DNA of 64,000 nucleotides from contig NEUK01000060.1 in NCBI GenBank assembly GCA_002290555.1, positions 2,225 through 66,224 on the forward strand, given 5' to 3'. Below the pieces are notes generated by a model. That model worked only from the letters and a program-made list of their open reading frames with translations. It was not told the origin of the DNA and did not search any database. Origin of the DNA: Spartobacteria bacterium AMD-G4 (GTDB lineage: Bacteria; Verrucomicrobiota; Verrucomicrobiia; Chthoniobacterales; Terrimicrobiaceae). A program made the translations under genes and the position numbers. Positions 9,444 to 37,180 of the stretch are shown here, piece by piece. The number at the start of each line of letters is the position of its first letter. Within the stretch, counting starts at the first letter, position 1.

Positions 9444-9556
9444 AGTGGACGCTCAATAACTGTCTCTGGAGCGATAAAAAAGAAAGCTCGCCGTAAGAAA
9501 GACGGCATGGATGGATTGTCGACAAAAGCCAGAACGGCGCTAAGTTGCGCCAAAAA

Positions 9557-10846: not shown

Positions 10847-10882
10847 TTGAGAGTGGTTTGGATTCGATGAGGTTGAAAATGA

Positions 10883-11755
10883 TTAGTTGGATGCAGGAGT
10901 GGGCCTTGGGGGTGTGCCGCTAGTGCCGCTGCCTGCCGTGCCAGATCCTGTCGAACCGGGAAGGCTCTGGCCTGCCGTCGATGTGCCTTGGTCTCCTGTA
11001 TTAGCTGGCTGATTGGCTGTTGGTGCTGGATTTTGCGAGCCGGTCTGCGCTGCTGCGGAAATTGCTGCTGCATCGGCGCTGGGCACCGCTGCCGTCACCG
11101 CAGACGCAACGGCCGTAGCGGAGGCAGGGACTGCAGAAGACACACTTTGGGCGATACTGACAGCTGCTGCAGGAACTGCGGCGGAGACACTGGCGGCAAT
11201 CTGAGGCGCGGACGCTGGCGCGACTGTTGCCACTGCCGCCGCGATGGCCGCTGCTTGAGCAGGCGCTGCAGTTGCCACTGCCGCTGCGACCGCCGCTGCT
11301 TGAGCGGGCGCTGCAGTTGCCACTGCTGCGGCTACCGCTGCGGCCTGAGCTGGAGCGGCTGCAGCTGCGCTTGCCGCGATTTGAGAAGAGAGGGCAGGAG
11401 CAAATGCCGTCGCCGCAGCAGCAATGGCCGCAGCTTGTGCGGGATTGGCTTGAGTCAGAGCAGACACTGCCGCGAGGAGGGCTTGTGTGTTCCCATCTTC
11501 CCCTAAAGCATTCAAGAGCGCTTGAACGGTTGACTGAGCTTGTGCGGGGGTAAGTTTGTACTGGGCTGCTATTGCCGTAGCGGCCTGTCTTTGTTGACGG
11601 AGGCTCTGTGCGCTGGAAACCGAAGATGTCGCGAGTGAGGTAGCGATGATCAAAAGGAAGAGGGATGCGATTGAGGATGTTTTCATGGTTTGATAAGTGG
11701 GTGTTGAATGTCTCTTACAGGAACCTAATACAGTTTCCAGCGCCAAATCAATCAT
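10883..11755 (-). CDS. Secreted Ala-rich 15-residue-repeat protein with a Gly/Ser/Thr/Pro tail (paralogous repeat to 1588-3105)
   Basis: Signal peptide MKTSSIASLFLLIIATSLATSSVSSAQ (an internal Met of the track ORF is the likely start). Repeats: APAQAAAVAAAVATA x2, APAQAAAIAAAVATV, APASAPQIAASVSAA, VPAAAVSIAQSVSSA, VPASATAVASAVTAA, VPSADAAAISAAA. The tail is ...GSTGSGTAGSGTSGTPPRPTPASN. Confidence 0.78.
   Translation of the reverse strand: MIDLALETVLGSCKRHSTPTYQTMKTSSIASLFLLIIATSLATSSVSSAQSLRQQRQAATAIAAQYKLTPAQAQSTVQALLNALGEDGNTQALLAAVSALTQANPAQAAAIAAAATAFAPALSSQIAASAAAAAPAQAAAVAAAVATAAPAQAAAVAAAVATAAPAQAAAIAAAVATVAPASAPQIAASVSAAVPAAAVSIAQSVSSAVPASATAVASAVTAAVPSADAAAISAAAQTGSQNPAPTANQPANTGDQGTSTAGQSLPGSTGSGTAGSGTSGTPPRPTPASN
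11226..11360. repeat. 45-bp tandem repeat (two near-identical copies plus a diverged third) encoding the 15-aa Ala-rich unit
   Basis: 11226-11270 reads gttgccactgccgccgcgatggccgctgcttgagcaggcgctgca. 11271-11315 reads gttgccactgccgctgcgaccgccgctgcttgagcgggcgctgca. A more diverged copy follows from 11316. Confidence 0.9.
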
Positions 11756-11920
11756 GAATGTTACAATTTCGTAACAAAAAAAACCGTCATTGCGATGCGT
11801 TTGCCGTTTTCGGCTTCACGAATTCCAGAGTGGCGTATCGCCCTTGCTGCCACTGATTCTCCCGTCGAAACAGTCATCCGTTTTTTGCCTCTTTTGTGGA
11901 AAGGGTCGGAATGTCTACAC

Positions 11921-13786: not shown

Positions 13787-13896
13787 TTTGCCTATGCATA
13801 AACAAAAATCCCTTCGCGCATGAACAAGGATTTCACATCTCCGGAGCGAATTTTTTTTGAATCGTCGGCAGCAAATGATGCGTAGATCATCTTCGC

Positions 13897-15063
13897 ATGA
13901 ACCAGACACCCATTCCCACGCAGGCAGCACGCCGTATTTTTCCAAAATTCCGTTTGGAAAATCTCCTCCGCAGCACCTTTGAACCTCGGATTGCTCAGAG
14001 GATTTGTATTTTGATCGACCTCCCGGATGCGTCGCAAATCAAAGAATTCGCTTTTTTGAAAAATCCGGAACTCACCATTCAAAAGAACGCTGTGAAGTTC
14101 TTCTTCGAGCCCCTCCGCGACGGCACCCTCGCCGAACTCGGACTCGGCGGCGGCGAGATGTATGCATACAAAATCACAGGTGGCAGCAACCTCGACCTTC
14201 CCGATGAGGCCTACACCCCAGACGGACGCACGGTGAGTTTGGAAAAGGATGTCTACCCGAACTACGACATCATCCTCTGCATTTCGACCTATTCTGCTAC
14301 AGCCCCGCTCACCGCCTTCGCCAAGAAATACGGATTTCGAGGCGCCACGCTCCACGGGGTCAACCAGACGATTCTTCGCACCGGACTTGCGGTGAGCTAC
14401 GACGATGTGAGTGTGGATGCTGAAAAGATGCGCCTCGGCATGACCGGGGCCGATTGGGTGGAGATCGATTTTCTGTTTAACGGAAACAGTCACACACTTC
14501 GACTCGAACTCGGGGGCCAAGAGGCACAAAAAAGCCACGGTCTCTGCCGGGGCGACGAACCCGATGTCGCCAACCTCCCAGCAGGCGAGATTTATTATGT
14601 GCCAACCGGCGCTTCGGGCGAATTCCCCATGCGCTACGAAGATGGAACAATCGGCCTCATGCATGTCGCCGACGGCCGCATCCAGAAAGCTGAACTCCTC
14701 AGTGGCGACGCCTCCGTCGTGGAAGCACACAATAAGAAGCTCTCCTCCGACCCTGTCACCGGAGAGCTCGGCGAGTTGGGCTTCGGCACACAGGTACTCC
14801 CAGTTTCGGGCCGTGACATTCAGGATGAAAAAATCCGTGGAACCATCCATGTGGCCACCGGGCGCAGCGATCATCTCGGCGGGTCGCTGACGCCGGACAA
14901 GTTTGCGGAGCACCTCAACGCCACGCATGACGACATCCTTTTTGCCCCGCACAAGACATCGGAGATTCTGGTGACCCAAGCTCGCATGCACAGGCACGGA
15001 GAGACGGTCGTGTTGATAGAAAACTTCGAGCCTTCTGCGTATATCAACAACCTGCTCGCCTGA
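13897..15063 (+). CDS. M29-family (aminopeptidase T/PepS-like) metallopeptidase
   Basis: Motifs match my recollection of M29: NLPAGEIYYVP, GELGELGFGTQ, DEKIRGTIHVATGRSDHLGG, NATHDDILF. Confidence 0.8.
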   Translation: MNQTPIPTQAARRIFPKFRLENLLRSTFEPRIAQRICILIDLPDASQIKEFAFLKNPELTIQKNAVKFFFEPLRDGTLAELGLGGGEMYAYKITGGSNLDLPDEAYTPDGRTVSLEKDVYPNYDIILCISTYSATAPLTAFAKKYGFRGATLHGVNQTILRTGLAVSYDDVSVDAEKMRLGMTGADWVEIDFLFNGNSHTLRLELGGQEAQKSHGLCRGDEPDVANLPAGEIYYVPTGASGEFPMRYEDGTIGLMHVADGRIQKAELLSGDASVVEAHNKKLSSDPVTGELGELGFGTQVLPVSGRDIQDEKIRGTIHVATGRSDHLGGSLTPDKFAEHLNATHDDILFAPHKTSEILVTQARMHRHGETVVLIENFEPSAYINNLLA

Positions 15064-23936: not shown

Positions 23937-24608
23937 TCAGACTCGGCGTTGCTTTGGCGGGCGGCAGCCGTTGTGGGGAATCGGGGTAACGTCGCAGATG
24001 ATCGTGACATCGAGGCCGATGGCCTGCATGGCGCGGACTGCGGATTCGCGGCCCGAGCCAGGACCCTTGACGCGCACTTCTACTTCTTTCAGGCCGTGGC
24101 CCATGGCTTGACGGCAGGCATCTTGCGCTGCCATCTGGGCGGCGTAAGCGGTGCTTTTGCGGGAGCCCTTAAAGCCACACTTGCCTGCACTGGACCATCC
24201 GATGATAGCGCCCCGAAGGTCGGTGATGCTGATGATCGTATTGTTGAAGCTCGCTTGAACGTGGGCGATACCCTGTATGATGTTCTTGCTGCCTTTGGCC
24301 TTGACGATTTTGATCGGCTCAATGGTGTCATCCAGCGAAATGCTAATCGGCGTGGGAGCTGCTGCGGTTGCTTTTTCTGCGCCGGCAGCTTTTTTCCCCT
24401 TGGGAGCCGCTTTGGCTTTTGGAGCTTTCTTCGCGGGAGCCTCTGCAGTTGTAGCGGGTGCATCAGCGACTGCGGAGATTGCAGCAGGCGTCTCGACGGC
24501 TACGGCAGGAGCTTCGGCGGTCGGGGCGGGTGCCTCAACGACTACAGCGGGAGTTGCTGGAGCACTCTCGAGCGGAGCCTCGGTTGGTTTTGTGTTTTCT
24601 TCACTCAT
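23937..24608 (-). CDS. rpsK: 30S ribosomal protein S11 with an ~90-aa Ala/Pro/Glu/Lys-rich N-terminal extension
   Basis: The C-terminal ~125 aa is canonical S11 ([52 protein letters not shown]...[45 protein letters not shown]). The ATG at 24608 lies 19 nt after the rpsM stop, and there is no in-frame Met before the S11 core. Confidence 0.93.
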
Positions 24609-26309: not shown

Positions 26310-27821
26310 CTAAAGCTGAGTAGCGAAATAGATCGTCACACCAGCTATGACGAGGATTGCAATACCGACATACATCCAAACGAGCGCTTGGTCGTTGATC
26401 GAATGACCCGAAGAAAGTCGGCTACGCGATTCTTGCGAGCTACGGATACGGCCCTTACGCAAGAAGCCATCATAATGTCGCTGAAGCAAATGCGTCTCAA
26501 CTTGGCGCATGGTATCCAAGACAACGCCAACGATGATTAAGAGACCTGTTCCACCGAAAAACTGGGATGTCATATAAGGCACCTGCAGGCTTTGGCTAAG
26601 GAGTTGGGGAAGAACCGCGACTGCAGTCAAAAAGATGGCGCCAGCAAAGGTGAGCCGTGTCATTGTGTAGTCCAAAAAGTCGGCCGTTGGCTTCCCTGGG
26701 CGAACACCGGGTATAAAGCCACCATATTTCTTAAGGTCATCGGCAATCTGAACAGGTTGAAATTGCGTCGCCACCCAGAAGTAACTGAAGAAGAAAATCA
26801 TCAGGGCGTAGAAAAGGTAGTGCAACCAACCGTAGGTGAGGAGATTTGAAAGGTCTTGAGCCCAACCCACTCCGGGAAAAGCCATGTTTAGAATTGTGGA
26901 AGGGAAGAGGAGGATGGCTTGCGCAAAAATGATGGGCATCACTCCTGCGTAGTTGATCTTCAAGGGCATGTATTGCGTCTGCCCTCCATAGACTTTACGA
27001 CCTACGACACGCTTTGCATATTGGACAGTAATCTTCCGCTGTGCTTGCGTAACAGCTATTACGGCAGCAATTACGAAAAAGAGAAACGCAATCATGAGGA
27101 CAAGCACAACAGGGCTTACAGTAGCTTGACCAGCGGTTGCTGCACTTGGAACAAATGTTCTCCATGCTTGAATGAGACCGGCAGGCAACTGAGCAAGGAT
27201 ACCCACAGTAATAATGATGGACATGCCATTGCCAATGCCTTTTTCGGTTAATTGGTCACCAAGCCACATGAGTAGCAATGTGCCAGCGGTCATTGTTATG
27301 ATTGTAACAAGCTGGAAACCAAAGCCGGGAGTCGTTACAAGTGGCATCCCAAGTTTATTGATGGTATCCATGATCCCGGGAAGAAAAGGATTCGCCTGCG
27401 GATTTTCAAAAGACTTCGACAGCAGATAAGCTTGAAAAACGCATAGCCCGATCGTTGCATACCGGGTATATTGCATGATTTTTTGGCGACCACCATCCTC
27501 GCGTGCCAATTTACCGAGTTGCGGAATGACAGCGGTGAGAAGCTGCAACATGATCGAAGCGCTAATGAAAGGCATGACGCCTAACGAAAAAATGGCACAG
27601 TTCGAAAGCGCTCCCCCACTGAAAAGGTTAAAGAGAGCAGCGACACCTCCGCTGGATGCAGCGTCGGCACTATCAAGAAACCATTGCCTGAGAACCTGGG
27701 CGTTAACACCAGGCGCAGTAATCGAAGATCCTGCACGGATTACAATTATCGCAGCAAGAGTAAAGAGAACCCTTGCACGGAGTTCTGGAATCTTGAAAAT
27801 GTTGGCGAAGGCGCTAATCAT
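26310..27821 (-). CDS. secY: Preprotein translocase subunit SecY (503 aa, with an extra C-terminal tail containing a hydrophobic segment)
   Basis: MISAFANIFKIPELRARVLFTLAAIIVIRAGSSITAPGVN...GVMPFISASIMLQLL...GGTGLLIIVGVVLDTMRQVETHLLQRHYDGFL, then the tail RKGRIRSSQESRSRLSSGHSINDQALVWMYVGIAILVIAGVTIYFATQL. Confidence 0.96.
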   Translation of the reverse strand: MISAFANIFKIPELRARVLFTLAAIIVIRAGSSITAPGVNAQVLRQWFLDSADAASSGGVAALFNLFSGGALSNCAIFSLGVMPFISASIMLQLLTAVIPQLGKLAREDGGRQKIMQYTRYATIGLCVFQAYLLSKSFENPQANPFLPGIMDTINKLGMPLVTTPGFGFQLVTIITMTAGTLLLMWLGDQLTEKGIGNGMSIIITVGILAQLPAGLIQAWRTFVPSAATAGQATVSPVVLVLMIAFLFFVIAAVIAVTQAQRKITVQYAKRVVGRKVYGGQTQYMPLKINYAGVMPIIFAQAILLFPSTILNMAFPGVGWAQDLSNLLTYGWLHYLFYALMIFFFSYFWVATQFQPVQIADDLKKYGGFIPGVRPGKPTADFLDYTMTRLTFAGAIFLTAVAVLPQLLSQSLQVPYMTSQFFGGTGLLIIVGVVLDTMRQVETHLLQRHYDGFLRKGRIRSSQESRSRLSSGHSINDQALVWMYVGIAILVIAGVTIYFATQL

Positions 27822-27842
27822 CTTGAGCTATTTGCATTACCA

Positions 27843-28307
27843 CTAAGACGCTGCTTCAACCTTTGGAAGGATGACTTGTCCGCCAGCTTTCTCGATCTTT
27901 TCGCGGGCAGTTGCACTCACCTCATCAGCTTCAACCGTAAAGGCTTTGGTCACTTCGCCACGGCCGAGGATTTTGATCCCGTCGAAACGACCCTTTACCA
28001 GACCAGCCTTGCGGAGAGTGGACTCGTTGATTATATCACCGGCTGAAAAGATTTTATCCAAGGAATCAAGATTCACGACGCCGTAAAATGTCTTGAAATC
28101 TTTGTTATTGAAACCGCGCTTAGGCAAGCGACGGTAAATAGGCATTTGACCACCTTCGAAACCGAGACGGATTGAACCACCCGAACGAGCTTTTTGACCC
28201 TTGTGGCCCTTACCGGAGGTTTTTCCTTTGCCGGAACTTTCACCGATTCCAAGGCGTTTACGGCGGTGTTTGGCACCAGGATTAGGTTTGAGTGTGTGAA
28301 GTCTCAT
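27843..28307 (-). CDS. rplO: 50S ribosomal protein L15
   Basis: MRLHTLKPNPGAKHRRKRLGIGESSGKGKTSGKGHKGQKARSGGSIRLGFEGGQMPIYRRLPKRGF... Confidence 0.97.
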   Translation of the reverse strand: MRLHTLKPNPGAKHRRKRLGIGESSGKGKTSGKGHKGQKARSGGSIRLGFEGGQMPIYRRLPKRGFNNKDFKTFYGVVNLDSLDKIFSAGDIINESTLRKAGLVKGRFDGIKILGRGEVTKAFTVEADEVSATAREKIEKAGGQVILPKVEAAS

Positions 28308-28312
28308 ATTGA

Positions 28313-28873
28313 TTAGGCGGCAACTGGTTCTGTCGGAGCGACGGCAACTTTAGGCCGTATTGTTTTGCCACGCAGACGGAAGACATCGTCTCTGAGGCGA
28401 AGTTGTGATAAGGCGGCAATGGTGGCTTGGACCACGTTAGCGTGGTTGCTGGAGCCAAGGGACTTGGCGAGAACATCACGTATTCCAACGGCTTCGAGCA
28501 CAGCGCGAACCCCACCGCCTGCAATAACGCCAGTTCCGGGCGATGCGGGACGCAGAAGAACGCGGCCTCCACCAAACTCACCGACCACCATGTGCGGAAT
28601 TGTATTCTCTTGAACAGCAATTTTAACCATTCGTTTCTTGGAGGCATCGGTAGCCTTACGGATAGCCTCACTGACTTCATTGGCCTTCCCAAAACCCACG
28701 CCAACTTTGCCTTTTTGATCTCCACAGACTATGAGAGCACTAAAGCTGAAACGACGACCGCCTTTGACAACTTTGGCGCATCGGTTGATGAAAACCACTT
28801 TCTCGGTGGTTTCTTTGGGTTCCCTTGGTGTATCAGAACGGGACTGTTTTCTATCTCTTGATTTCGGAGGCAT
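28313..28873 (-). CDS. rpsE: 30S ribosomal protein S5
   Basis: [49 protein letters not shown]...[31 protein letters not shown]. It has a basic N-terminal extension. Only 5 nt separate it from rplO, so there is no rpmD between them. Confidence 0.96.
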
Positions 28874-28885
28874 GATAAGTTCGTA

Positions 28886-29242
28886 TTAGAATTCAAAACC
28901 GCCCTCTCGAGCGGCGTCGGCAAGGGCTTTGACCTTACCATGGTATTTAAAGCCACCTCGATCAAAAACAACCTTGGTGATTTTGTGAGCGGCGGCCCGT
29001 TCGGCGATGAGCTTGCCGACTTCTGAAGCAGTGGCCACATTGGCCCTCGCGCCTGGTTTAGCACGAAGTTCAGCTTCAGTGGTGTTTACTGAAACAAGAG
29101 TCTTACCGATAGAGTCATCAATGACTTGGGCCGTGATATGGCGACCGGAAAAGTGAACCGCCAACCTCGGACGGGAGGGTGTGCCTGCAATCTTTTTACG
29201 CAGGCGGACATGACGGAATTTGCGTTTATCTGTAGCGGACAT
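28886..29242 (-). CDS. rplR: 50S ribosomal protein L18
   Basis: [34 protein letters not shown]...[28 protein letters not shown]. Confidence 0.97.
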
Positions 29243-29245
29243 GAT

Positions 29246-29785
29246 TTATTGGACTGTTTTGCCTTCCTTACGGCGGATTTGTTCACCAACGAAGCGGACG
29301 CCCTTACCCTTGTAAGGTTCTGGTGGATAATACGCACGGATATCTGCAGCGCACTGTCCGACGACCTGCTTGTCGATGCCTTCTATGGAGAGCTTTGTGT
29401 TCTCAGTAACCGTGACTTTGACGCCCTCGGGAATGTTAAATATGATGGGATGAGACTTTCCAAGGTTGAGGTTGAGCTTCTGACCTTGGACAGCGGCTTT
29501 AAATCCGACACCATGGATTTCCATGTCGCGCTTGAAGCCATCCGTAACACCCGTAATCATGTTTGATATCAACGAGCGGGAAAGACCGTGGAGGGCCTTC
29601 TGCTGACGATTTTCGCCCTCGCGAAGCACTGAAAGTTCTTCACCATCAAGTTTAGCACTGATCTTTGATGGCAGGGTCCAGTCGAGTTGTCCCTTTGGGC
29701 CCTCAACATTGACACTACCATTGGATGCCAAGGTGACTTTGACCTTTGGCGGGACTTTTATAGCTTGTTTTCCGATGCGTGACAT
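29246..29785 (-). CDS. rplF: 50S ribosomal protein L6
   Basis: MSRIGKQAIKVPPKVKVTLASNGSVNVEGPKGQL...YYPPEPYKGKGVRFVGEQIRRKEGK. Confidence 0.97.
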   Translation of the reverse strand: MSRIGKQAIKVPPKVKVTLASNGSVNVEGPKGQLDWTLPSKISAKLDGEELSVLREGENRQQKALHGLSRSLISNMITGVTDGFKRDMEIHGVGFKAAVQGQKLNLNLGKSHPIIFNIPEGVKVTVTENTKLSIEGIDKQVVGQCAADIRAYYPPEPYKGKGVRFVGEQIRRKEGKTVQ

Positions 29786-29789
29786 GTTA

Positions 29790-30179
29790 TTACCAGATGT
29801 AGGCGAGCAATTCCCCGCCGACTTTTTGTTTGCGCGCTTCGTGGCCGGTTAGAATCCCGCGAGAGGTGGAAAGAACCGCAATGCCCATTCCGCCGAGGAC
29901 GCGAGGAATTTCCTCTGCTCCCACATAGCGGCGAAGGCCAGGACGGCTTACGCGTTTCAGGCCGGTTATGGCGCTAGTTTTGTTGACGAACTTGGTTTGG
30001 ATTTTGATATTCTGGTGACCATCAACGGTTACCAGCTCAGTTTCTTTGATGTAGCCTTCCTTTTTGAGAACTTGGGCAATATCGCTTTTAAGCTTGGAGT
30101 AGGGTAGAGTGAGAGAGGCTTGCCCAGCTGCGGCAGAGTTGCGCAGGCGTGTTAACATATCAGCAATGGGATCGGTCAT
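29790..30179 (-). CDS. rpsH: 30S ribosomal protein S8
   Basis: MTDPIADMLTRLRNSAAAGQASLTLPYSKLKSDIAQVLKKEGYI...GMGIAVLSTSRGILTGHEARKQKVGGELLAYIW. Confidence 0.97.
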   Translation of the reverse strand: MTDPIADMLTRLRNSAAAGQASLTLPYSKLKSDIAQVLKKEGYIKETELVTVDGHQNIKIQTKFVNKTSAITGLKRVSRPGLRRYVGAEEIPRVLGGMGIAVLSTSRGILTGHEARKQKVGGELLAYIW

Positions 30180-30188
30180 ATCGTAGGA

Positions 30189-30785
30189 TTAAAGGGCTGG
30201 AGCTGTTGCGGATTTACTCTCAACCTGCTTTTTAGGTTTATCGGTGAAGGGCATGCCAAGCTCAGTGAGAAGGGACTTGGCTTCTGCATTTGTTGATGCT
30301 GTGGTGACGATGGTCACATCAAAACCAATATTCTTTTTGATACGATCGAGCTCAATTTCAGGAAAAATAGACTGGTCGGAAACGCCAAGTGTGTAGTTTC
30401 CTTGCCCATCGAAAGCGCGCGGAGAAATGCCCCTAAAATCACGAATACGAGGGAGAGCTGTTTTAATGAGGCGCTCCAAAAACTCATACATGATACGCCC
30501 ACGCAATGTCACCTTGGCACCAATGGGTTGCGCTTCACGAAGTTTGAAGTTTGAAATGGCTTTTTTGGCCATGGTCGTTACTGGGCGTTGGCCAGAGATC
30601 GTAGTGAGCTCTGTACGAGCAACTTCGAGGGACTCTTTGACATCTGGCGCAGATCCAATACAGGTATTGATAACGACCTTCGAGATTTTAGGGATCTGGT
30701 GAATGTTCGAATATCCATGCTTCTCTCGCAGCGCAGGAATGACACGGGTTTTGTAGTCGGTAAGGAGTTCGGGTTCTTGAATCAT
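30189..30785 (-). CDS. rplE: 50S ribosomal protein L5
   Basis: LLTDYKTRVIPALREKHGYSNIHQIPKISKVVINTCIG...RDFRGISPRAFDGQGNYTLGVSDQSIFPEI. Only 9 nt separate it from rpsH, so there is no rpsN/rpsZ between them. Confidence 0.97.
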   Translation of the reverse strand: MIQEPELLTDYKTRVIPALREKHGYSNIHQIPKISKVVINTCIGSAPDVKESLEVARTELTTISGQRPVTTMAKKAISNFKLREAQPIGAKVTLRGRIMYEFLERLIKTALPRIRDFRGISPRAFDGQGNYTLGVSDQSIFPEIELDRIKKNIGFDVTIVTTASTNAEAKSLLTELGMPFTDKPKKQVESKSATAPAL

Positions 30786-30798
30786 GGCTATGTACTAC

Positions 30799-31068
30799 TT
30801 ACGCGGCGTTTTTTGACTTCTTATCGTTGGTTGCATGTTCGAGCAACTTTACATTTGAGATATGAATAGGACCCTCGCGTTCAAGAATTGCACCGTTGGG
30901 ATGCTCTTGAGACTTGCGCTGGTGCTTTTTGATCATCCGCACGCCTTCCACAATGACTTGTAGCTTGGCTGCTTTAACTTCGAGAACTTTGCCGCTGGCA
31001 CCTCGGTGGTTGCCCGAGATAACTTGCACAGTATCGCCTCGACGAACATGGAATTTGACTTGGCTCAT
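30799..31068 (-). CDS. rplX: 50S ribosomal protein L24
   Basis: VRRGDTVQVISGNHRGASGKVLEVKAAKLQVIVEGVRMIKKHQRKSQEHPNGAILEREGPIHISNV. Confidence 0.96.
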   Translation of the reverse strand: MSQVKFHVRRGDTVQVISGNHRGASGKVLEVKAAKLQVIVEGVRMIKKHQRKSQEHPNGAILEREGPIHISNVKLLEHATNDKKSKNAA

Positions 31069-31433
31069 TATAGGACCTCCGGGGCTAAGGAGATAATCTT
31101 CATAAAATTCTTTTCACGCAGTTCACGGGCCACGGGGCCAAAGATACGAGTGCCACGCGGGTTCATGTCTTTGTCAATAATAACAATGGCGTTACTATCA
31201 AAGCGCAGAGCGGAACCATCTTCTCTTATTACTGGTTTTTTGGTGCGGACTACGACAGCACGGACAACATCACCCTTCTTTACTGTGCCACCAGCGGAAG
31301 CTTCCTTCACATTGGCTGTGATGACATCGCCGATACGAGCGACTTTAGTGGCTTTGCCAATGACACCAATCATTGTGGCCATTCGTGCACCGGTGTTATC
31401 GGCGACATCGAGGCGGGAGCGGATTTGAATCAT
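31068..31433 (-). CDS. rplN: 50S ribosomal protein L14
   Basis: [66 protein letters not shown]... Confidence 0.98.
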
Positions 31434-31438
31434 AAAAA

Positions 31439-31723
31439 TTAGTGCTTTAGGACTTCGAGGAGACGCCAGCGTTTCGTTCGGCTTAGCGGGCGGGTTTCCA
31501 TAATACTCACGCGGTCACCAATCTGTGCTTCATTCTTTTCATCGTGAGCATGAAACTTGGTCACATGCTTTGTGATCTTCCCGAATTTGGGGTGAGGTAC
31601 GCGTGTGATTGCTCGAACAACAATGGTCTTGTCCATCTTGTTCGAAACGACTTCACCGACACGAACCTTGCGTAATCCGCGGGACTCGGCTTGTGTGGCT
31701 TCGAGAGTGTTTGTATCTTCCAT
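31439..31723 (-). CDS. rpsQ: 30S ribosomal protein S17
   Basis: [73 protein letters not shown]. Confidence 0.96.
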
Positions 31724-31726
31724 TGA

Positions 31727-31930
31727 CTACTTAGCGGCTGTTTCCTGAGCCTTGCGGCTAAGAACGGTTTCGATGCGAGCAACATTCCGGCGAGCAACTC
31801 GAATGAGATGCGGCCTTTCGAGTTGGGAACTTTGTTGCTGGATGCGCAGAGTGAACATCTCTTCTTTGAGTTCCCGTTTGCGGGATAGGAGCTCCTTGGG
31901 CGTGAGTTCCTGAATTTCTTTGATTTTCAT
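31727..31930 (-). CDS. rpmC: 50S ribosomal protein L29
   Basis: MKIKEIQELTPKELLSRKRELKEEMFTLRIQQQSSQLERPHLIRVARRNVARIETVL. Confidence 0.95.
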   Translation of the reverse strand: MKIKEIQELTPKELLSRKRELKEEMFTLRIQQQSSQLERPHLIRVARRNVARIETVLSRKAQETAAK

Positions 31931-31938
31931 ATGTTCAA

Positions 31939-32358
31939 TTAGGAGGCGTGGTGGCGGGTAATGAATCGAGTGCGGAGTGGGAGTTTGTTTGCAGCCAACC
32001 TGAGAGATTCACGCGCAACTGTTTCTGAGATTCCATCCAATTCAAAAAGGATGTTACCAGGCCGAACAACAGCAACCCAGTATTCAGGTTGCCCTTTTCC
32101 TTTACCCATGCGAGTCTCTGGCGGGCGGGCTGTGACAGACTTGTCAGGAAAAATGCGAATCCATAGCTTACCCTTACGCTTCATATTGCGGGTCAAAGCA
32201 ACGCGCGCGGCTTCAATTTGTGTATTTGTAATCCAACCCCGCTCCAGCGTCTGTAGACCGAATTCACCGAAATCAATTGTGATGTTGCGTGAAGCGAGTC
32301 CCTTGCGGCTTCCCCGCTGGGTCTTGCGATACTTCACGCGTTTTGGCATTAATGGCAT
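31939..32358 (-). CDS. rplP: 50S ribosomal protein L16
   Basis: [57 protein letters not shown]... Confidence 0.98.
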
Positions 32359-32393
32359 AGATTTATCCTTTTACTTAAGATTCAGTTCGTGCT

Positions 32394-33107
32394 TCAGGCT
32401 ACATGCGGCTCACTGGCGGCAACTGGTGCCGATGGCGCCGATGGCGCCGGCTGCCGAGGATCTTGGGGCTTCTCTTGAACTTCCTCAACCTTCTTACAAA
32501 TCCAGCATTTGACGCCAATCTTGCCAGCGATTGTCTCAGCCTCCGTAAACCCGTAGTCGATAGGCGTTCTGAGTGTGTGAAGTGGCACTTTACCTTCATG
32601 GTAACGCTCAGTGCGAGCAATTTCGGAGCCACCAAGGCGCCCTGCGACGCGAATTTTGATACCAAGAGCCCCTTGCTCCATGGTGATTTGAACAGCACGC
32701 TTCATTGCACGGCGAAACGAAATACGCCGCTCGAGTTGAGAAGCTACATTTTCTGCAACCAACTGGGCATCCAGATCGGGATTTTTGACCTCAACAATAT
32801 CAATTTTAACCTGCTTGCCGCCAGCAAGATCGCTCACTTCTTTTGTGAGGCCTTCGATTTCCTGACCTCGACGACCGATAACGACACCTGGGCGAGCGGT
32901 ATGAATGGTCACACGAACACTGTTCCATGCCCGCTCGATAACGATCCGGGAGATAGCCGCCTGCTTGAGCTTACGTTTTAAAACGTTGCGTATTTTATCG
33001 TCGGCAATGAGGTAGTCTGCAAAATCTTTACGAGAGGCATACCAGCGCGAGCCCCAATCACGAGTGATGGGGAGGCGGAATCCGATTGGGTTAACTTTTT
33101 GTCCCAT
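32394..33107 (-). CDS. rpsC: 30S ribosomal protein S3 (with a Pro/Ala-rich C-terminal tail)
   Basis: [44 protein letters not shown]...[31 protein letters not shown]. Confidence 0.98.
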
Positions 33108-33109
33108 GA

Positions 33110-33586
33110 TTATTCCTTAATATCCGCAGCTTTGGCGGAGTCTTCTGTTGGTGTTGTTGCCGTGACTTGAGCTACTGAAGCTTTATTCTTGGCGGAAGGT
33201 TTGGTGTTTGACGATTTTTTGCTCTTGGGCTTATCGCTACGTCGGACGATCTCAATCTCATCTGTGAGAGTGACACTGATATGGCTTGTGCGCTTGCGGA
33301 TGGGACCAGCACTGCCACGAGCTTTTGGCTGAAACCGCTTCAGCGTTGGCCCCTCACCTACGACAGCCTCTTTGACGACTAAATCGCCCGAGTTAAGTTG
33401 ATTGTTATTCTCTGCATTAGCTATGGCGCTTTTGAGAGTTTTCAGGATGAGACCTGCCGCCTTTTTGGGTGTGAAACGCAAAAGGTCAAGGGCGTCGGTG
33501 GCCGGCATTCCTTGAATAGCGCGTGTAACCTCACGTGCCTTGAAGGCAGAGATTTTAGCAAACCTATGAATCGATTTTACCTGCAT
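33110..33586 (-). CDS. rplV: 50S ribosomal protein L22 (with a Lys/Ser-rich C-terminal extension)
   Basis: [61 protein letters not shown]...[18 protein letters not shown]. Confidence 0.97.
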
Positions 33587-33604
33587 TTTATTATGTGTTT
33601 TAAA

Positions 33605-34390
33605 TTATTTGAGAGCTTCAACTTTGAGTTGATCTCCTTTTTCAATACGGAGCTTTTCTGAAGAAAGAGATTGAATCACGCCACCGGATATTTTTTCCCG
33701 GACATCTACTATTTTAATACTGTTGATGAGTTTACCTTTTCTTAAAACTTGGAATGGCATGCCAAGTTTGACCCCGTGTATTTTACCAATGTTAACAACA
33801 ACGAGGGAGATTTCCCCTTTCGTATCGATTACCAATCCATCATTTAAACTGGAGGTCAAAGAGTTGGGAGAGGCTTGAAGCGAAGACGCGAGCAACTCGC
33901 TTGTTTTTCGCATCTCGGTTTCCACCAGCATTCGGGATTGCGGGTTGCTGTCTTTGGCGGTGAGCAGTAGCACTTGGATGGCCTCGTGTAAGAGCAACAA
34001 TTGATTGCGAGTAGACTCATCACTGCTTTTGAGAACTCTTAATTCCTGAAGACATTCCAGCATCCGCTTTTCAATAGCAGAACGATCTTCTGCTCTTGTG
34101 GTCAGGCTAAAGACTTCAAGTTTTTGGCGTGCCTCCTCAAGTTCCCTACGCGATGCCTCTGCACTATTTCCCATTTCTGCGACTGTCGCGGTCAGCGCAG
34201 AAATGGTCGTTTCGGCCAAAAGGAGTTTCTCCTTCAAGGCACCAATAGTATTAGAATCGGACTCCGAAGCTTTTGCTTTGGAGTATCCTATTCGTGATTC
34301 AAAATCTGTCAAAGATCGGTCATCCTCCGCCGGTGCTTGGATAAGCAGTGGCAGGATGATGAGTGCTGCCGCCGTGGCGACAACCCTCAT
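33605..34390 (-). CDS. Hypothetical secreted coiled-coil protein with a beta-rich C-terminal module, embedded between rpsS and rplV
   Basis: 261-aa ORF on the same strand as the operon, 4 nt after the rpsS stop and 18 nt before the rplV start. Signal peptide MRVVATAAALIILPLLIQAPAEDD, a long helical E/L/S/T-rich middle, and a C-terminal GLVIDTKGEISLVVVNIGKIHGVKLGMPFQVLRKGKLINSIKIVDVREKISGGVIQSLSSEKLRIEKGDQLKVEALK. I recognise no family. Confidence 0.75.
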   Translation of the reverse strand: MRVVATAAALIILPLLIQAPAEDDRSLTDFESRIGYSKAKASESDSNTIGALKEKLLLAETTISALTATVAEMGNSAEASRRELEEARQKLEVFSLTTRAEDRSAIEKRMLECLQELRVLKSSDESTRNQLLLLHEAIQVLLLTAKDSNPQSRMLVETEMRKTSELLASSLQASPNSLTSSLNDGLVIDTKGEISLVVVNIGKIHGVKLGMPFQVLRKGKLINSIKIVDVREKISGGVIQSLSSEKLRIEKGDQLKVEALK

Positions 34391-34394
34391 GGGT

Positions 34395-34673
34395 TTATTT
34401 GGTCACTTTTGCGGTGTGAGAACCGTGTTTCTTAAAGATTCGCGTTGGAGAAAATTCCCCCAACTTGTGACCCACCATGTTCTCAGTAACAAAAACAGGT
34501 ATGAAAGTTTTGCCGTTGTGCACATTGAAAGTGTGGCCTACAAAATCTGGGGTAATTGTGCTACGGCGGGACCAGGTTTTGATCGGCTTCTTGCCACCCG
34601 ATTCATTCATTTTATCGATCTTGTCGAGGAGTTTCCACTCGACGTATGGGCCTTTTTTAAGTGAGCGTGCCAT
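34395..34673 (-). CDS. rpsS: 30S ribosomal protein S19
   Basis: [74 protein letters not shown]. Confidence 0.98.
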
Positions 34674-34682
34674 ATTTAGTTT

Positions 34683-35531
34683 TTAGCTTTTAGCTTTAGA
34701 TTTACGACGCTGAACGATGAATGTGTCGCTTGGTTTGTGTTTTCGCCGAGTCTTAAAGCCCTTGGCAAGTTGACCCCAAGGTGACATAGGATGGTGGCGA
34801 CCACCACCGCCTTTGCTCTTGCCTTGTCCGCCACCCATCGGGTGATCGACTGGGTTCATGACCATGCCACGAACATGTGGGCGGATGCCAAGCCATCGGC
34901 TGCGGCCTGCCTTACCGGAGGACACATTCATGTGATCGGAGTTGCCAACTTGGCCAATTGTGGCGTAGCAGTTTTCGTTGATCCTACGAATTTCACCGGA
35001 AGCCAGTTTGACCAGCGCATGGCCACCTTCGCGGTTGGCGAGAACAGCCACTGAACCTGCGCTCCGGACGATCTGACCGCCACGGCCTGGAATGAACTCG
35101 ACATTGTGAATAGATGTTCCAAGAGGAATCACTTTGAGGGGGAGGGCATTCCCAACTTTCGGCTCTGCACCTTCGCCAGCCATGATTTTGTGACCCACCT
35201 CGAGTCCGACAGGAGCGAGAATGTAGGATTTCTCGCCGTCTTCATATTTGACAAGCGCGATGCGCGCTGTCCGGTTGGGATCATATTCAATAGCAATAAC
35301 TTCAGCAGATAAATCACGGCGACTGCGCTTGAAGTCTATGATGCGATAACGGCGTTTGTGCCCACCTCCAACATGTCGCATCGTGATGCGGCCTTGGTTG
35401 TTTCTACCACCAGTTTTTTTGATTGGCTCGGTGAGCTTTTTCTCGGGCTTACTCTTGGTAATCTCGGCAAAATCCGGCAGCGCTTTAAAGCGCGCGGATG
35501 GCGTGAGAGGTCGGAAAGTTTTAATGGCCAT
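34683..35531 (-). CDS. rplB: 50S ribosomal protein L2
   Basis: [16 protein letters not shown]...[28 protein letters not shown]...[40 protein letters not shown]. Confidence 0.98.
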
Positions 35532-35543
35532 GATCTGATTTTT

Positions 35544-35831
35544 TTAAACGAAGTCGAGTTTCTCGCCGTCTTTAAGCGTCACAATTGCTTTTTTCCAACT
35601 TGCTTGGCGTCCAAAATCCGCACGGCGCTCGCGTTTCTTTTTGCCTGCATAGTTGGCAGTGTTCACATCGGCCACTTTCTTCTTAAAGATGACTTCGATA
35701 GCGCGCTTGATCTGAAGTTTGTTGGCAGAAGGTCGGACTCGAAAAACATACTTATTGAGTTTTTCGGACAGCAAGGTTGCCTTTTCTGTCAACAGAACAG
35801 TTTCTATGTGGTCGTAAATTTCGGTATTCAT
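35544..35831 (-). CDS. rplW: 50S ribosomal protein L23
   Basis: VLLTEKATLLSEKLNKYVFRVRPSANKLQIKRAIEVIFKKKVADVNTANYAGKKKR...WKKAIVTLKDGEKLDF. Confidence 0.96.
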   Translation of the reverse strand: MNTEIYDHIETVLLTEKATLLSEKLNKYVFRVRPSANKLQIKRAIEVIFKKKVADVNTANYAGKKKRERRADFGRQASWKKAIVTLKDGEKLDFV

Positions 35832-36463
35832 TACGCGAGTCTTTCGGAAATTTTTTGCAGGGCGCCACGCGTGACGATGATTTTGTCAAACGCAAGCAGG
35901 TGCTCGGTATTGACGTCTGCAGCCCGAGTGAGTTGAGCGGTGCTCACATTGCGGGCGGCCTTGAAGGTATTTTCATCGAAGCCTTCGGAGACGATCAGGG
36001 TCTTGCGAGCATTGGGAATAGCCTCGCGGAGAAGAGTGACAAAATTCTTTGTCTTTGGCTCTGCCACAACAAATACATCCACGAGGAGAACATCGCCAAG
36101 GGCGATACGGGCGCTGAGGGCTTTTCGCAAAGCGAGTTTCTTAACAGCCTTGGGAGTGTTCTTGGTGTAGTCGCGAGGAACTGGGCCGTGAGCGACGCCA
36201 CCACCAACCCACACCGGGCTTGAGAAATATCCAGCACGGGCGCGGCCGGTTCCCTTTTGACGCCAGGGTTTGCGACCTGAGAGGTTGACTTCCGCCTTGG
36301 TTTTCGCACATGCGGTTCCACTGCGGCGGGCAGCTTGAAGGGCTACGACGACATCGTGGACGGCTTGGTTGCCTTTGGCTTCATCTGTGATGAGTTCTAT
36401 TTTCGCCTCTGCGGCGTCTGCTGCTGTAAGAACGGTGGCGCTCATGATCAAAGTTTTTTGCAA
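35831..36463 (-). CDS. rplD: 50S ribosomal protein L4 (first gene of this cluster; no rplC or rpsJ upstream)
   Basis: AVHDVVVALQAARRSGTACAKTKAEVNLSGRKPWRQKGTGRARAGYFSSPVWVGGGVAHGPVPRDY... The start could also be the second Met (MSATVL...). Confidence 0.96.
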   Translation of the reverse strand: MQKTLIMSATVLTAADAAEAKIELITDEAKGNQAVHDVVVALQAARRSGTACAKTKAEVNLSGRKPWRQKGTGRARAGYFSSPVWVGGGVAHGPVPRDYTKNTPKAVKKLALRKALSARIALGDVLLVDVFVVAEPKTKNFVTLLREAIPNARKTLIVSEGFDENTFKAARNVSTAQLTRAADVNTEHLLAFDKIIVTRGALQKISERLA

Positions 36464-36712
36464 TCACAACAACTCGCTATCGCTCTGGTAGCGATTTCGG
36501 ATGGAGTGTATGTGTTGCTTTTCATGTTTGGTTTTTCCGCGGAGCATCTTGTTTCAAAGGGATGGAATCGTTTTTAGATTGTCGATCCACTCCCCCTCGA
36601 GGCTTTGCGGGAAGGGGGAAGCTACAGAGCATCGAAAAGTTGGCAAGCGAAAAAAGAAAAAAAAACCTGCATCCGACTCTGGGCCCCCAGTGACGAGTTT
36701 CACGCAGATACT

Positions 36713-37180
36713 TTAATATCGGAAATCCGGCCTAGAATCGGCGTCAGGCTCCATGTCCGATATGGGATGAAGAATGTCAACTGGCTCAGGCAGAGCTTCG
36801 ATCTCCGGCGTTAGTAAAGGGTGAGTCGCTTCATCATTTACAGCAACGAAGGCCCCTCGCTGAGAGGGCTTGCGGGTTGGCTTTGGCGAATCCAAAGGCG
36901 CAACAGGCGGCGCTGACGAAATGTCTTCGTTGGCAATGTAGCCCGCGCGGCCGTCGCTCATTTCCACGAAGCTGTAACCAAACTCACGGCGCAGCATCTT
37001 GACTCTTTCGCCACGATGAAGCGAGGCGTCTGGTCCTCGCTCTTGGCCGGGCCCAAGCTGGTAGACGAGCGCGTAGTCGGACTGCACTAAAAACTCTGGA
37101 GCTTTCGTTGGATCAAAACTCTCGGTCGCGCATCCCACCAACGAGGCAAGGAGGGGAATAAAAAGAAAAAAGGGTTTCAT
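36713..37180 (-). CDS. Lipoprotein with a bacterial SH3-like domain
   Basis: Lipobox MKPFFLFIPLLASLVGC. SH3_3-like segment YALVYQLGPGQERGPDASLHRGERVKMLRREFGYSFVEMSDGRAGYIANEDI. Confidence 0.75.
   Translation of the reverse strand: MKPFFLFIPLLASLVGCATESFDPTKAPEFLVQSDYALVYQLGPGQERGPDASLHRGERVKMLRREFGYSFVEMSDGRAGYIANEDISSAPPVAPLDSPKPTRKPSQRGAFVAVNDEATHPLLTPEIEALPEPVDILHPISDMEPDADSRPDFRY

Follow-up and report, generated by a model that had tools for sequence, protein, structure and literature searches.

The genes rpsS and rplV, which encode ribosomal proteins S19 and L22, are adjacent in nearly all bacteria. In the 64,000-nucleotide stretch of Spartobacteria bacterium AMD-G4 DNA analysed here (the window), a third gene, which we call X, lies between them. 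This raises the questions of whether X is a genuine gene, how it is expressed from within a ribosomal operon and what its product may do. The locus is laid out as follows.

33605..34390, minus strand: gene X, an ORF of 261 aa with an ATG start (ORF list and translation)
34395..34673, minus strand: rpsS (ribosomal protein S19), immediately upstream of X (ORF list, translation)
33110..33586, minus strand: rplV (ribosomal protein L22), immediately downstream of X

The Pfam assignments of the flanking genes, Ribosomal_S19 for rpsS and Ribosomal_L22 for rplV, were taken from the syntenic genes in relatives. A first-pass annotation had described X as a 786-nt ORF on the same strand as its neighbours, 4 nt past the rpsS stop and 18 nt ahead of rplV, and as visibly AT-rich. 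The coordinates confirm this layout. The rpsS/X junction reads ...AAA TAA accc ATG AGG... (a spacer of 4 nt), and the 3' end of X reads ...CTC AAA TAA, followed by an 18-nt A/U-rich spacer and the rplV ATG. With a GC content of 0.459, X is also the lowest of the 59 long ORFs in the window, where the ribosomal-protein genes range from 0.47 to 0.55.

Comparison with two relatives yielded a dN/dS of 0.19-0.20 over the 261 codons of X, a value of about 0.2 that indicates purifying selection. The neighbouring ribosomal-protein genes had dN/dS values of 0.00-0.09, with the exception of rpmC, which reached 0.19 in one low-divergence comparison. The dN of X was roughly ten times that of its neighbours, and in the loci of relatives X was 35-68% identical where S19 was 83-100% identical. 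A word-indexed search returned 211 homologues, nearly all 261 aa long. An exhaustive HMMER search against representatives of 50%-identity clusters gave 1128 hits at E<1e-3, of which 149 were at E<1e-30. Length is also conserved across the 81 loci compared, 43 of which have an X of 260-261 aa.

The S19-X-L22 order was found in every sampled locus whose contig spans both flanks (~90 loci). The sample comprised about 80 loci from Chthoniobacterales-type MAGs, one from Methylacidiphilales, four labelled Verrucomicrobiales or Verrucomicrobiae, and two that were labelled only Verrucomicrobiota or were unlabelled. In the Methylacidiphilales locus, the order fusA-rpsJ-rplC-...-rpsS-X-rplV is intact. 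The spacers are short: the S19 stop is 2-8 nt from the X ATG in 60/81 loci, and the X stop is at most 31 nt from the L22 start in 75/81. In the Verrucomicrobiales loci, the spacers around X are longer. Across at least three orders, X was intact and in place, and no sampled locus had moved or lost it. A broken or missing ORF in relatives would have refuted the first-pass annotation, and this was not the case. Here, X was found in Verrucomicrobiota only, and in the planctomycete P. limnophila rpsS (Plim_0481) adjoins rplV (Plim_0482) with no X between them. The insertion of X between the two genes probably dates from early in the evolution of Verrucomicrobiota. On the basis of dN/dS and of the synteny conserved across orders, we excluded a pseudogene, a chance ORF and a recent horizontal insertion. 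X is a genuine protein-coding gene, kept in this position under purifying selection.

The gene had not been assigned to any named family, and our scans agree: nothing in Pfam or NCBIfam reached threshold with the window protein, and ten distant members gave sub-threshold matches only. A literature search returned no relevant account of any gene separating rpsS from rplV, nor of S10-spc organisation in Verrucomicrobia.

The rpsS/X junction itself is structured at the RNA level. Its elements are listed below.

34304..34439, minus strand: conserved mRNA structure at the rpsS/X junction (RNAalifold and covariation)
34431-34439 with 34304-34313, and 34421-34425 with 34317-34321, minus strand: P1 (long-range)
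34416-34419 with 34403-34406, minus strand: P1b
34377-34389 with 34360-34372, minus strand: P2 hairpin, from the U of the X AUG
34343-34357 with 34322-34338, minus strand: P3 hairpin, in the signal-peptide codons

In Chthoniobacterales, covariation shows an mRNA structure that extends from the end of rpsS to about 30 codons into X and sequesters the X start codon. The last ~15 rpsS codons provide its 5' strands. Among 73 sequences, 86.3% of cells were paired, versus 34-43% in slid controls, and the covariation score of 0.251 (0.07-0.10 in slid controls) was reached in 0/500 shuffles. Compensatory changes were found in 13/14 pairs of P3 and 6/12 pairs of P2. Changes in P1 were nearly all one-sided, with hardly any compensatory ones, and its pairing is broken in some sequences. 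The single-sequence MFE of the junction is -44.7 kcal/mol (z = -3.06). Synonymous codon choice is restricted over the same region: entropy was 0.89 bits in rpsS codons 76-90 versus 1.6-1.7 mid-gene, and 0.63-0.69 bits in X codons 1-40 versus 1.4-2.0 elsewhere in X, with about 0.9-1.7 bits across ribosomal-protein genes. A covariance model of the junction found one match per locus, with E-values of 1e-9 to 1e-34 in Chthoniobacterales; outside this order the structure was weakly detectable or undetectable. Rfam gave no match at gathering score across the whole window and chance-level matches only at the junction. The 136-nt junction RNA is a previously undescribed cis-element. Like the start-site hairpins and autoregulatory structures of ribosomal-protein mRNAs, it is a structured junction occluding a downstream start, here 4 nt past a stop codon, but the cistron regulated at the X junction does not encode a ribosomal protein.

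That X would have no promoter or terminator of its own was upheld by scans of positions 32800-35000, which revealed no excess of sites (promoter-like, 3 versus 2.2 expected). We considered an internal sigma-70 promoter, as the invariant TTGACA at codons 27-28 is -35-like and is followed 16 nt downstream in the window by TAGGAT, a candidate -10. This promoter is not supported, as relatives show no conservation at the -10 site. An intrinsic terminator between rpsS and rplV was rejected; P2 lacks a U-tract, and no excess of terminator-like sites emerged from the scan. X and the ribosomal-protein genes are likely co-transcribed.

A known parallel is offered by the secY, adk, map and infA genes of the S10-spc-alpha cluster, which are non-ribosomal housekeeping cistrons co-transcribed with ribosomal-protein genes. 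They occupy the distal part of spc and occur in nearly all bacteria. In the window, secY (26310-27821) belongs to the same gene cluster as X, and secY and map come after rplO. Unlike these genes, X splits rpsS-rplV inside S10, and it belongs to no named family. A role in protein export is served by secY as well.

The first-pass annotation had further expected X to be expressed at ribosomal-protein levels, which we now doubt. Codon adaptation to a ribosomal-protein table was 0.640 for X, 0.74 +/- 0.027 for the ribosomal-protein genes and 0.678 for other genes, so that X scored lower than every ribosomal-protein gene. Instead of low expression, the cause of the low codon adaptation could be weak selection or the amino-acid composition of the protein. 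The X start is also the most structured among the internal genes of the operon, with an MFE of -20.6 kcal/mol versus -3.8 to -11.6 kcal/mol for the ribosomal-protein genes and the lowest unpaired probability (0.30). The rplV start region is unstructured (MFE -5.4 kcal/mol). The X start was likewise the most structured in five of eight other loci tested, and in three Verrucomicrobiales loci it was not unusually structured. A sequestered X AUG points to translation of X being coupled to that of rpsS. Probably, X output is tied to ribosomal-protein synthesis, yet set below it. A novel coupling of an envelope protein to ribosome synthesis, as first proposed, is plausible.

Such coupling need not be adaptive. 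The position of X might be a frozen accident without functional meaning: an ordinary envelope-protein gene would have entered the operon a single time and become trapped, as its departure would harm essential neighbours, with the junction RNA merely insulating ribosomal-protein stoichiometry from an inserted cistron. This would fit a gene order that stayed fixed as the X protein diverged 5-20 times faster than its neighbours, as well as a codon usage unlike that of ribosomal-protein genes, and the longer spacers and ordinary X start structure in Verrucomicrobiales. However, retention in at least three orders with no sampled loss or move exceeds what entrapment by itself would lead us to expect, and the presence of so elaborate a covarying structure around the X start codon indicates selection on the level of X expression. 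We therefore regard an accident as unlikely. It agrees with most of the explanation that we favour, and the sole point of difference is the adaptive value of the coupling.

The N-terminus of X, where the RNA structure ends, has two features at the protein level.

34328..34390, minus strand: signal peptide, codons 1-21, MRVVATAAALIILPLLIQAPA then EDD (read from the sequence)
34298..34318, minus strand: motif R-S-L-T-D-F-E at the predicted mature N-terminus, with the underlying block TCTTTGACAGATTTTGAA

X had been thought to carry a cleavable signal peptide. In X, the features of a type I Sec signal are indeed present: the n-region is basic, the hydrophobic core is 15 residues long (10-15 are expected) and both -3 and -1 are occupied by small residues (A-P-A). 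The signal-like segment is conserved family-wide. The predicted layout is MR-VVATAAALIILPLLI-QAPA, with the cut before E. Residue A21 is at least 90% conserved in the family. A hydrophobic N-terminal 12-mer was found in 350/408 family members, and a small-x-small site follows the segment in 376/408. One member that seemingly has no hydrophobic N-terminus, P0268, has the segment upstream of a mis-called start. The X product is thus predicted to be Sec-exported with a type I cleavable signal peptide.

The nucleotide block TCTTTGACAGATTTTGAA is almost invariant among relatives, the codons TCT and TTG within it occur in 75/75 sequences, and the exact 11-mer TCTTTGACAGA had a single occurrence, in a constant position, in 54 of the 94 loci retrieved. 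Because the N-terminal 30 codons of X are under RNA-level constraint, conservation of the residues that they encode cannot count as separate support for a signal peptide. It is thus conceivable that X is a cytoplasmic factor associated with the ribosome or with translation, as its location in a ribosomal operon might suggest, and that its hydrophobic N-terminus was shaped only by the encoded RNA structure. Yet distant members whose N-termini are unrelated in both nucleotide and protein sequence keep the basic n-region, hydrophobic core and small-x-small site. The mature part is near neutral (35 K+R, 36 D+E, net charge -1), X matched no RNA-binding family in Pfam or NCBIfam, and the nearest folds of its C-terminal barrel are periplasmic modules. 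A cytoplasmic role is accordingly very improbable. The absence of any match to a ribosomal-protein family, together with the signal peptide, the near-neutral mature part and the tenfold higher dN, also bears out the original impression that the product is not a ribosomal protein.

The mature protein consists of two regions.

33884..34246, minus strand: helical region, residues 49-169 (AF2 model, pLDDT about 70-87)
33620..33838, minus strand: six-stranded C-terminal beta-barrel, residues ~185-257 (domain model, pLDDT 88.1, pTM 0.78)

A helical, heptad-like stretch of ~170 aa had been proposed. Its helical nature is supported, but the AF2 model contains four helices (residues 49-98, 105-119, 125-144 and 150-169), all amphipathic, instead of a single coiled coil. 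Helix 1 (49-98) combines an unbroken a/d heptad register with SLAxANxEAExFRR, a conserved motif of its polar core. On the single X sequence, heptad periodicity scored weakly in a crude FFT analysis; the family-wide hydrophobic pattern was clearer, with conserved hydrophobic positions spaced 3-4 residues apart. Sequence searches of the PDB with two X family profiles gave coiled-coil noise only (tetherin, vimentin, liprin), matched over the helical region alone, and an insignificant MexC-like match. This 45-residue match (E 0.3-0.47) and the absence of a Pfam HlyD match led us to reject X as an adaptor of the HlyD/MexC type.

The barrel has four family-invariant residues (G202, P212, R231 and D253) and the motifs GxxxGVxxGMP and VVDVRxxIxGAV. 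Its best structural match was the C-terminal domain of FlgT, a Vibrio flagellar H-ring protein (TM 0.69-0.70; 3w1e, 8z5n). Query-normalised Foldseek TM-scores were 0.70 for FlgT 3w1e, 0.60-0.69 for the N-terminal barrel of F1-ATPase alpha/beta and 0.52 for MreC 2j5u. A small barrel resembling those of MreC or membrane-fusion proteins had been suspected. The small barrel is supported by the model, but its likeness to MreC is at the fold level only and weaker than that to FlgT_C or the F1 crown. As modelled, the barrel fold is generic, since the F1-ATPase crown is matched equally well.

At the sequence level, FlgT_C (PF16538) was the only Pfam model matched by many X family members (23/46 at E<=0.1). 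The window protein scored 20.2-23.1 bits, below the 27-bit cut-off, and a few database relatives of X carry a precomputed PF16538 label. FlgT is a Sec-exported periplasmic protein and part of the solved LPHT ring (8z5n), and X is likewise predicted to be Sec-exported and periplasmic. The Foldseek match spans ~90 columns with the isolated X barrel and ~117 with the full-length model, and the rest of the 356-residue FlgT has no counterpart in X: the FlgT_N and FlgT_M domains of Pfam were unmatched. Conversely, the N-terminal two-thirds of X are helical and its long coiled-coil region is absent from FlgT. X also lies in a ribosomal operon, versus a flagellar cluster for FlgT.

MreC shares more of the overall plan, as both proteins have an N-terminal hydrophobic segment, a coiled coil and a beta-barrel in the same order. 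They also have in common a G-x-x-G-V-x-x-G-M-P-V strand motif, within the longer vIdkGsxxGVxxGmPV. X could accordingly be a divergent, single-barrel MreC paralogue in peptidoglycan elongation, for example as a PBP scaffold or activator, which entered the operon by chance. NCBI calls P0268 (MCS7064619.1) 'rod shape-determining protein MreC', Foldseek matched MreC structures 2j5u and 7eft, and sub-threshold matches to positions 7-42 of Pfam PF04085 and to NCBIfam MreC equivalogs were recurrent. These scores were far below the cut-offs, however. The window protein did not match the MreC models (Pfam PF04085, NCBIfam PRK13922 models) at E<=10, distant members reached 14-15.6 bits where the cut-off is 28 bits, and the NF010513 score was 20.7 bits for a cut-off of 380. 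Only 3/46 members matched MreC, versus the 23/46 for FlgT_C. An hhalign comparison of the X family profile with E. coli MreC gave 15% probability over 29 columns. MreC has two consecutive barrels after its coiled coil, whereas the AF2 model of X has one and nothing beyond, with a TM-score below that for FlgT. Nor is X adjacent to mreB or mreD, as it always lies between rpsS and rplV. In V. spinosum, a canonical and essential mreC lies beside mreB at another locus (VSP_RS17760, VSP_RS17765), so X is not the MreC of that organism. On these grounds we rejected X as a member of MreC proper and consider a divergent paralogue unlikely.

Predicted export together with extended amphipathic helices and a small ring-forming barrel, as in F1 and FlgT, could also describe a periplasmic holdase chaperone. 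Such a protein would resemble a Skp- or prefoldin-like 'jellyfish' with a barrel hub for oligomerisation and helical arms, and would receive newly exported proteins, its expression going along with that of translation and secretion genes. The presence of secY in the same gene cluster and synthesis tied to translation capacity would suit this role. On the other hand, neither sequence nor fold searches matched X to Skp/OmpH, prefoldin or SurA, and the highly conserved polar helix motif ANxEAExFRR suggests a specific partner and not promiscuous client binding. A holdase function is decidedly unlikely.

From its architecture and fold likeness only, we infer that X may be a periplasmic scaffold. 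The explanation that we favour joins this with the expression data: X would be a selected gene, coupled to rpsS, whose exported product serves as an envelope scaffold with a growth-linked supply. We put its probability at roughly 55%. In this explanation, X would be transcribed together with the S10/spc ribosomal-protein genes and translated chiefly by ribosomes coming off rpsS, which terminate 4 nt ahead of X after melting P1 and P2. Coupling would keep the yield of X in constant proportion to that of S19, and lower than the ribosomal-protein level. The product would be exported via Sec, with the signal peptide cut after A-P-A, and could oligomerise in the periplasm through its heptad helices and FlgT_C-like barrel. 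The oligomer would form a structural scaffold of the cell envelope, its supply scaling with growth rate.

Published transposon data may bear on how important X is. In V. spinosum, VSP_RS22560 is a 786-nt gene between rplV (VSP_RS22555) and rpsS (VSP_RS22565) (PMC12283558 Data S5). Its TraDIS insertion index was 0.00127389, or one insertion in 785 nt, where the library average was one insertion per 12 bp, and it was classed as essential (PMC12283558). Targeted mutagenesis is available for this species (PMC12283558). We link this gene to X by locus-tag order and gene length, because searches by name for an orthologue in V. spinosum, Akkermansia and other cultured species returned only MAG labels. 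A Tn5 insertion in VSP_RS22560 would be polar on essential downstream genes. The essential classification fits an important housekeeping role, and could alternatively reflect such a polarity effect. More tentatively, and at well below even odds, X may be an essential, Verrucomicrobiota-specific envelope-building protein that is metered by ribosomes finishing S19, unlocking the junction and reinitiating on X.

If true, the supply of an envelope scaffold would be slaved to translational capacity with no transcription factor needed. X would then be a hard-wired growth-rate coupler that links biosynthesis in the cytoplasm with that in the periplasm. It would also be a phylum-defining synapomorphy within a gene cluster that is among the most conserved in bacteria. 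As rpsS-rplV adjacency is near-universal, its lineage-wide interruption is a clean phylogenetic marker for Verrucomicrobiota, and it marks a protein that selection has neither lost nor relocated. With no Pfam or NCBIfam model, and with an essential-looking gene at its position in V. spinosum, the family is a priority target for the poorly studied verrucomicrobial envelope. The junction RNA offers a directly testable case of how a ribosomal operon of set stoichiometry can express a non-ribosomal cistron and remain undisturbed. Should the coupling be adaptive, it would bear on the old question of how envelope growth in bacteria is kept in step with biosynthetic capacity.

The minus strand of the window carries a ribosomal protein cluster reading rplD-rplW-rplB-rpsS-[X]-rplV-rpsC-rplP-rpmC-rpsQ-rplN-rplX-rplE-rpsH-rplF-rplR-rpsE-rplO-secY-map...rpsK-rpsD, an order matched by the gene calls of a 92%-identical relative. 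X denotes the following gene:

33605-34390, minus strand: gene X, 261 aa, between rpsS (S19) and rplV (L22)

Four nucleotides (accc) separate the rpsS stop codon from the X ATG, and 18 A/U-rich nucleotides lie between the X stop codon and the rplV ATG. Consensus scans found no excess of promoter- or terminator-like sites around X, and its G+C content of 0.459 is the lowest among all long ORFs in the window. As coordinates, gaps, site scans and G+C content agree, the first-pass annotation had described the position, spacing and AT-richness of X, and its lack of a promoter or terminator of its own, accurately. An internal promoter suggested by an invariant TTGACA was not supported, as no -10 element is conserved.

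Scanning one genome per GTDB species yielded 209 X-encoding stretches, of which 80 were kept. The search patterns reach close relatives only, and the kept records carry, with few exceptions, the labels Terrimicrobiaceae, Chthoniobacterales, Spartobacteria or the broader Verrucomicrobia/Verrucomicrobiota. Wherever the contig reaches far enough, tblastn placed S19 directly before X and L22 directly after it in all 85 loci, with X identity down to 35% and S19 identity still at 83-100%. The S19 stop and the X ATG lie 2-8 nt apart in 60/81 loci, and the X stop precedes the L22 start by no more than 31 nt in 75/81. Seven distant family members were checked singly, and S19-X-L22 was present in each: a Methylacidiphilales MAG whose fusA-rpsJ-rplC-rplD-rplW-rplB-rpsS-X-rplV is intact, three MAGs labelled Verrucomicrobiales, one labelled Verrucomicrobiae, one record labelled only Verrucomicrobiota and one unlabelled. 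The arrangement first noticed in a single genome is thus kept among relatives, and in at least three verrucomicrobial orders every member sampled has its rpsS-rplV pair split by X. No X insertion was seen outside Verrucomicrobiota in the outgroup looked at, the planctomycete P. limnophila, where rpsS (Plim_0481) and rplV (Plim_0482) have consecutive locus tags. Together, the distant S19-X-L22 loci and these adjacent tags indicate that the insertion is old within Verrucomicrobiota. The literature searched held no description of a gene between rpsS and rplV. A rival reading of the position of X in the operon is a frozen accident.

Several other features of the cluster and its surroundings were observed. 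In this lineage the S10 operon begins at rplD; rpsJ and rplC are not upstream (36464-36712), and tblastn found neither in the whole 64-kb window. Other Chthoniobacterales loci (L001, L003, L086) likewise start at rplD, and in the Methylacidiphilales and Verrucomicrobiales loci (L090, L092-L097) rpsJ and/or rplC lie directly upstream of it. The rplD start region is strongly structured (-21.2 kcal/mol), so it may be a leader element. In L093, one of the distant relatives, a pair of short uncharacterised ORFs without Pfam match (63 and 71 aa) is called between rplD and rplW (L093:1081-1484), where the S10 operon may hold a further insertion. A 155-aa ORF (36713-37180, minus strand) immediately precedes the operon; it encodes a lipoprotein-type signal (MKPFFLFIPLLASLVGC) and a tail rich in proline, has no Pfam match, and was found in the closest relative, L086, and not in L088. 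The longest ORF for rpsK (S11; 23937-24608, minus strand) has 223 aa, of which only residues 113-222 form the S11 domain; the long N-terminus probably reflects a start called too far upstream, not a real extension. A polysaccharide- or envelope-related group at 7287-13945 (minus strand) includes a 718-aa protein whose C-terminal domain is a ParA/MinD-like P-loop (the architecture of a tyrosine-kinase-like chain-length regulator), two ORFs without Pfam match and a Wzy_C O-antigen-ligase-like protein of 674 aa. Close to this group is a NusG-family paralogue (6183-6728).

Loci whose X proteins share 43-68% identity have nearly the same first 30 nt of X. Codon entropy, taken at conserved four- and six-fold degenerate codons, amounts to 0.63-0.69 bits over X codons 1-40 and 1.4-2.0 bits in the remainder of X; in L2, S19, L22 and S3 it is about 0.9-1.7 bits, with a minimum of 0.89 in the last 15 codons of S19. 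The block TCTTTGACAGA (X codons 26-29) is exact in 54/94 loci. RNAalifold predicted a three-way structure at this junction:

34304-34439, minus strand: mRNA structure from the rpsS 3' end to X codons 1-30; three helices, X start codon buried, covarying
P1: long-range helix between the rpsS codons for IFK and X codons 26-30
P2: GC-rich hairpin whose first base is the U of the X AUG
P3: hairpin within the signal-peptide codons of X

We evaluated this structure on 73 sequences, aligned with MAFFT from sequence only, against slid structures and 500 shuffles. Paired cells amounted to 86.3% (slid controls 34-43%), the covariation score was 0.251 (0.07-0.10), a value reached by 0/500 shuffles, and 211 cells had changed on both sides (79-103). 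Compensatory changes occur in 13/14 pairs of P3 (one pair is CG 23, AU 19 and GC 14 times) and in 6/12 pairs of P2. P1 is 96% paired, but its changes are essentially one-sided, so this helix is consistent but unproven. The window sequence alone gives the same fold (-44.7 kcal/mol, z = -3.06). A covariance model found exactly one match per locus, with E-values of 1e-9 to 1e-34 in Chthoniobacterales, including loci outside its training set; matches outside this order were weak or absent, and the structure had no Rfam match. This structure explains why synonymous sites hardly vary here, those of the block TCTTTGACAGATTTTGAA (34298-34315) among them, and we infer that a previously undescribed covarying mRNA structure governs the X start in this lineage.

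Among the operon genes in the window, the first gene and map excepted, X has the most occluded start: its minimum free energy over -30..+45 is -20.6 kcal/mol, compared to -3.8 to -11.6 for internal ribosomal protein genes, and the mean unpaired probability around its AUG (0.30) is the lowest. X also has the most structured start in 5/8 other loci, but not in three Verrucomicrobiales loci. Strong Shine-Dalgarno sequences are lacking in all operon genes. Given an rpsS stop only 4 nt upstream, this occluded start would most simply be read as termination-reinitiation coupling of X to rpsS. A ribosome completing S19 would melt P1 and the 5' arm of P2 and expose the X AUG, at which ribosomes from solution would be unable to initiate. 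Codon adaptation of X to the ribosomal protein codon table is 0.640, 3.6 sd below the ribosomal protein mean of 0.74; the window's other genes score 0.678. As sequence-based indications, the occluded start, the presumed coupling and the low codon adaptation together argue that X would be made in proportion to the ribosomal proteins, yet at a lower level. The proposed expression at ribosomal protein abundance would thus need revising.

Across the operon starts (26310-36463, minus strand), almost no ribosomal protein gene has a GGAGG-type Shine-Dalgarno sequence and start regions are A/U-rich and unstructured, which suggests largely SD-independent initiation in this organism. Mean GC3 is 0.50 in ribosomal protein genes (27843-36463) versus 0.61 in other window genes; highly expressed genes therefore seem to prefer codons ending in A/U in this moderately GC-rich genome. 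In the Verrucomicrobiales MAG L092 (L092:2940-3030), a perfect hairpin, AAUAGGGUU...ACCCUAUU, is located in the rpsS-X spacer. ACCCUAUUG occurs a second time at X codons 7-10, which allows two mutually exclusive pairings, and this arrangement could be a different, switch-like solution to X start control.

The dN/dS of X is 0.19 and 0.20 against relatives with 92% and 77% identical X, and 0.00-0.09 for 13 neighbouring ribosomal protein genes, except rpmC (0.19 in the low-divergence comparison). These values point to purifying selection. A word-indexed search returned 211 homologues; almost every one is exactly 261 aa long, and their names are all uninformative. An exhaustive HMMER profile search of 1.84 billion cluster representatives matched 1128 of them at E<1e-3, 438 at E<1e-10 and 149 at E<1e-30. 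The window protein reached no family model's cut-off, in line with the earlier impression that X belongs to no named family. Judged from these comparisons, X is a real gene under purifying selection, of an unnamed protein family.

Saturating mini-Tn5 TraDIS in V. spinosum (mean one insertion per 12 bp) classed VSP_RS22560, the gene between rplV and rpsS, as essential, with an insertion index of 0.00127389 (1 in 785 nt); the indices are 0.0154 for rplV (VSP_RS22555; 6 in 389 nt) and 0.0108 for rpsS (VSP_RS22565; 3 in 278 nt) (PMC12283558). VSP_RS22560 is therefore a 786-nt, 261-codon gene, which matches X in length and position and is its putative counterpart. Insertions in it would also be polar on rplV and later genes.

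The N-terminus of X reads MRVVATAAALIILPLLIQAPA before and EDD after the predicted cleavage site. It is organised into n, h and c regions like a type I signal peptide, A occupies positions -3 and -1, and conservation of A21 is at least 90%. A strongly hydrophobic 12-mer (median start at residue 7) is present in 350/408 full-length family members. One member seemingly without this segment has it upstream of a mis-called start, and the design is kept in members with sequence-unrelated N-termini. The signal peptide proposed from the single sequence is borne out, and the X family is predicted to be exported; a cytoplasmic factor is the rival reading. Mature X starts with a conserved RSLTDFE motif and a low-confidence linker of ~20 aa, followed in the AF2 model by four helices (49-98, 105-119, 125-144 and 150-169). 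The first has a conserved a/d heptad pattern and an unusually conserved polar stretch, SLAxANxEAExFRR, whose conservation argues for a specific interaction over a generic spacer. The C-terminal 85 residues, modelled alone with 46 sequences, form a six-stranded barrel (pLDDT 88, pTM 0.78). Foldseek against the PDB gave query-normalised TM-scores of 0.69-0.70 to FlgT (3w1e, 8z5n LPHT ring), 0.60-0.69 to the F1-ATPase alpha/beta N-terminal barrel and 0.52 to MreC (2j5u).

The small barrel likened to MreC was recovered, but FlgT is closer, and among 46 members Pfam matches at E<=0.1 were to FlgT_C in 23/46 and to MreC in 3/46. One distant family member is labelled 'MreC' at NCBI and weak MreC matches recur. 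We rejected X as MreC: the profile aligns with E. coli MreC over 29 columns at 15% probability, X has a single barrel and not two, it never adjoins mreB, and an essential mreB-mreC pair is present separately in V. spinosum. Rival readings are a single-barrel MreC-like elongasome factor and a holdase chaperone. X belongs to neither the MreC nor the FlgT family. By loose analogy with both, it may act as an oligomeric scaffold in the periplasm. Our best-supported guess is that X functions as a growth-coupled periplasmic scaffold.
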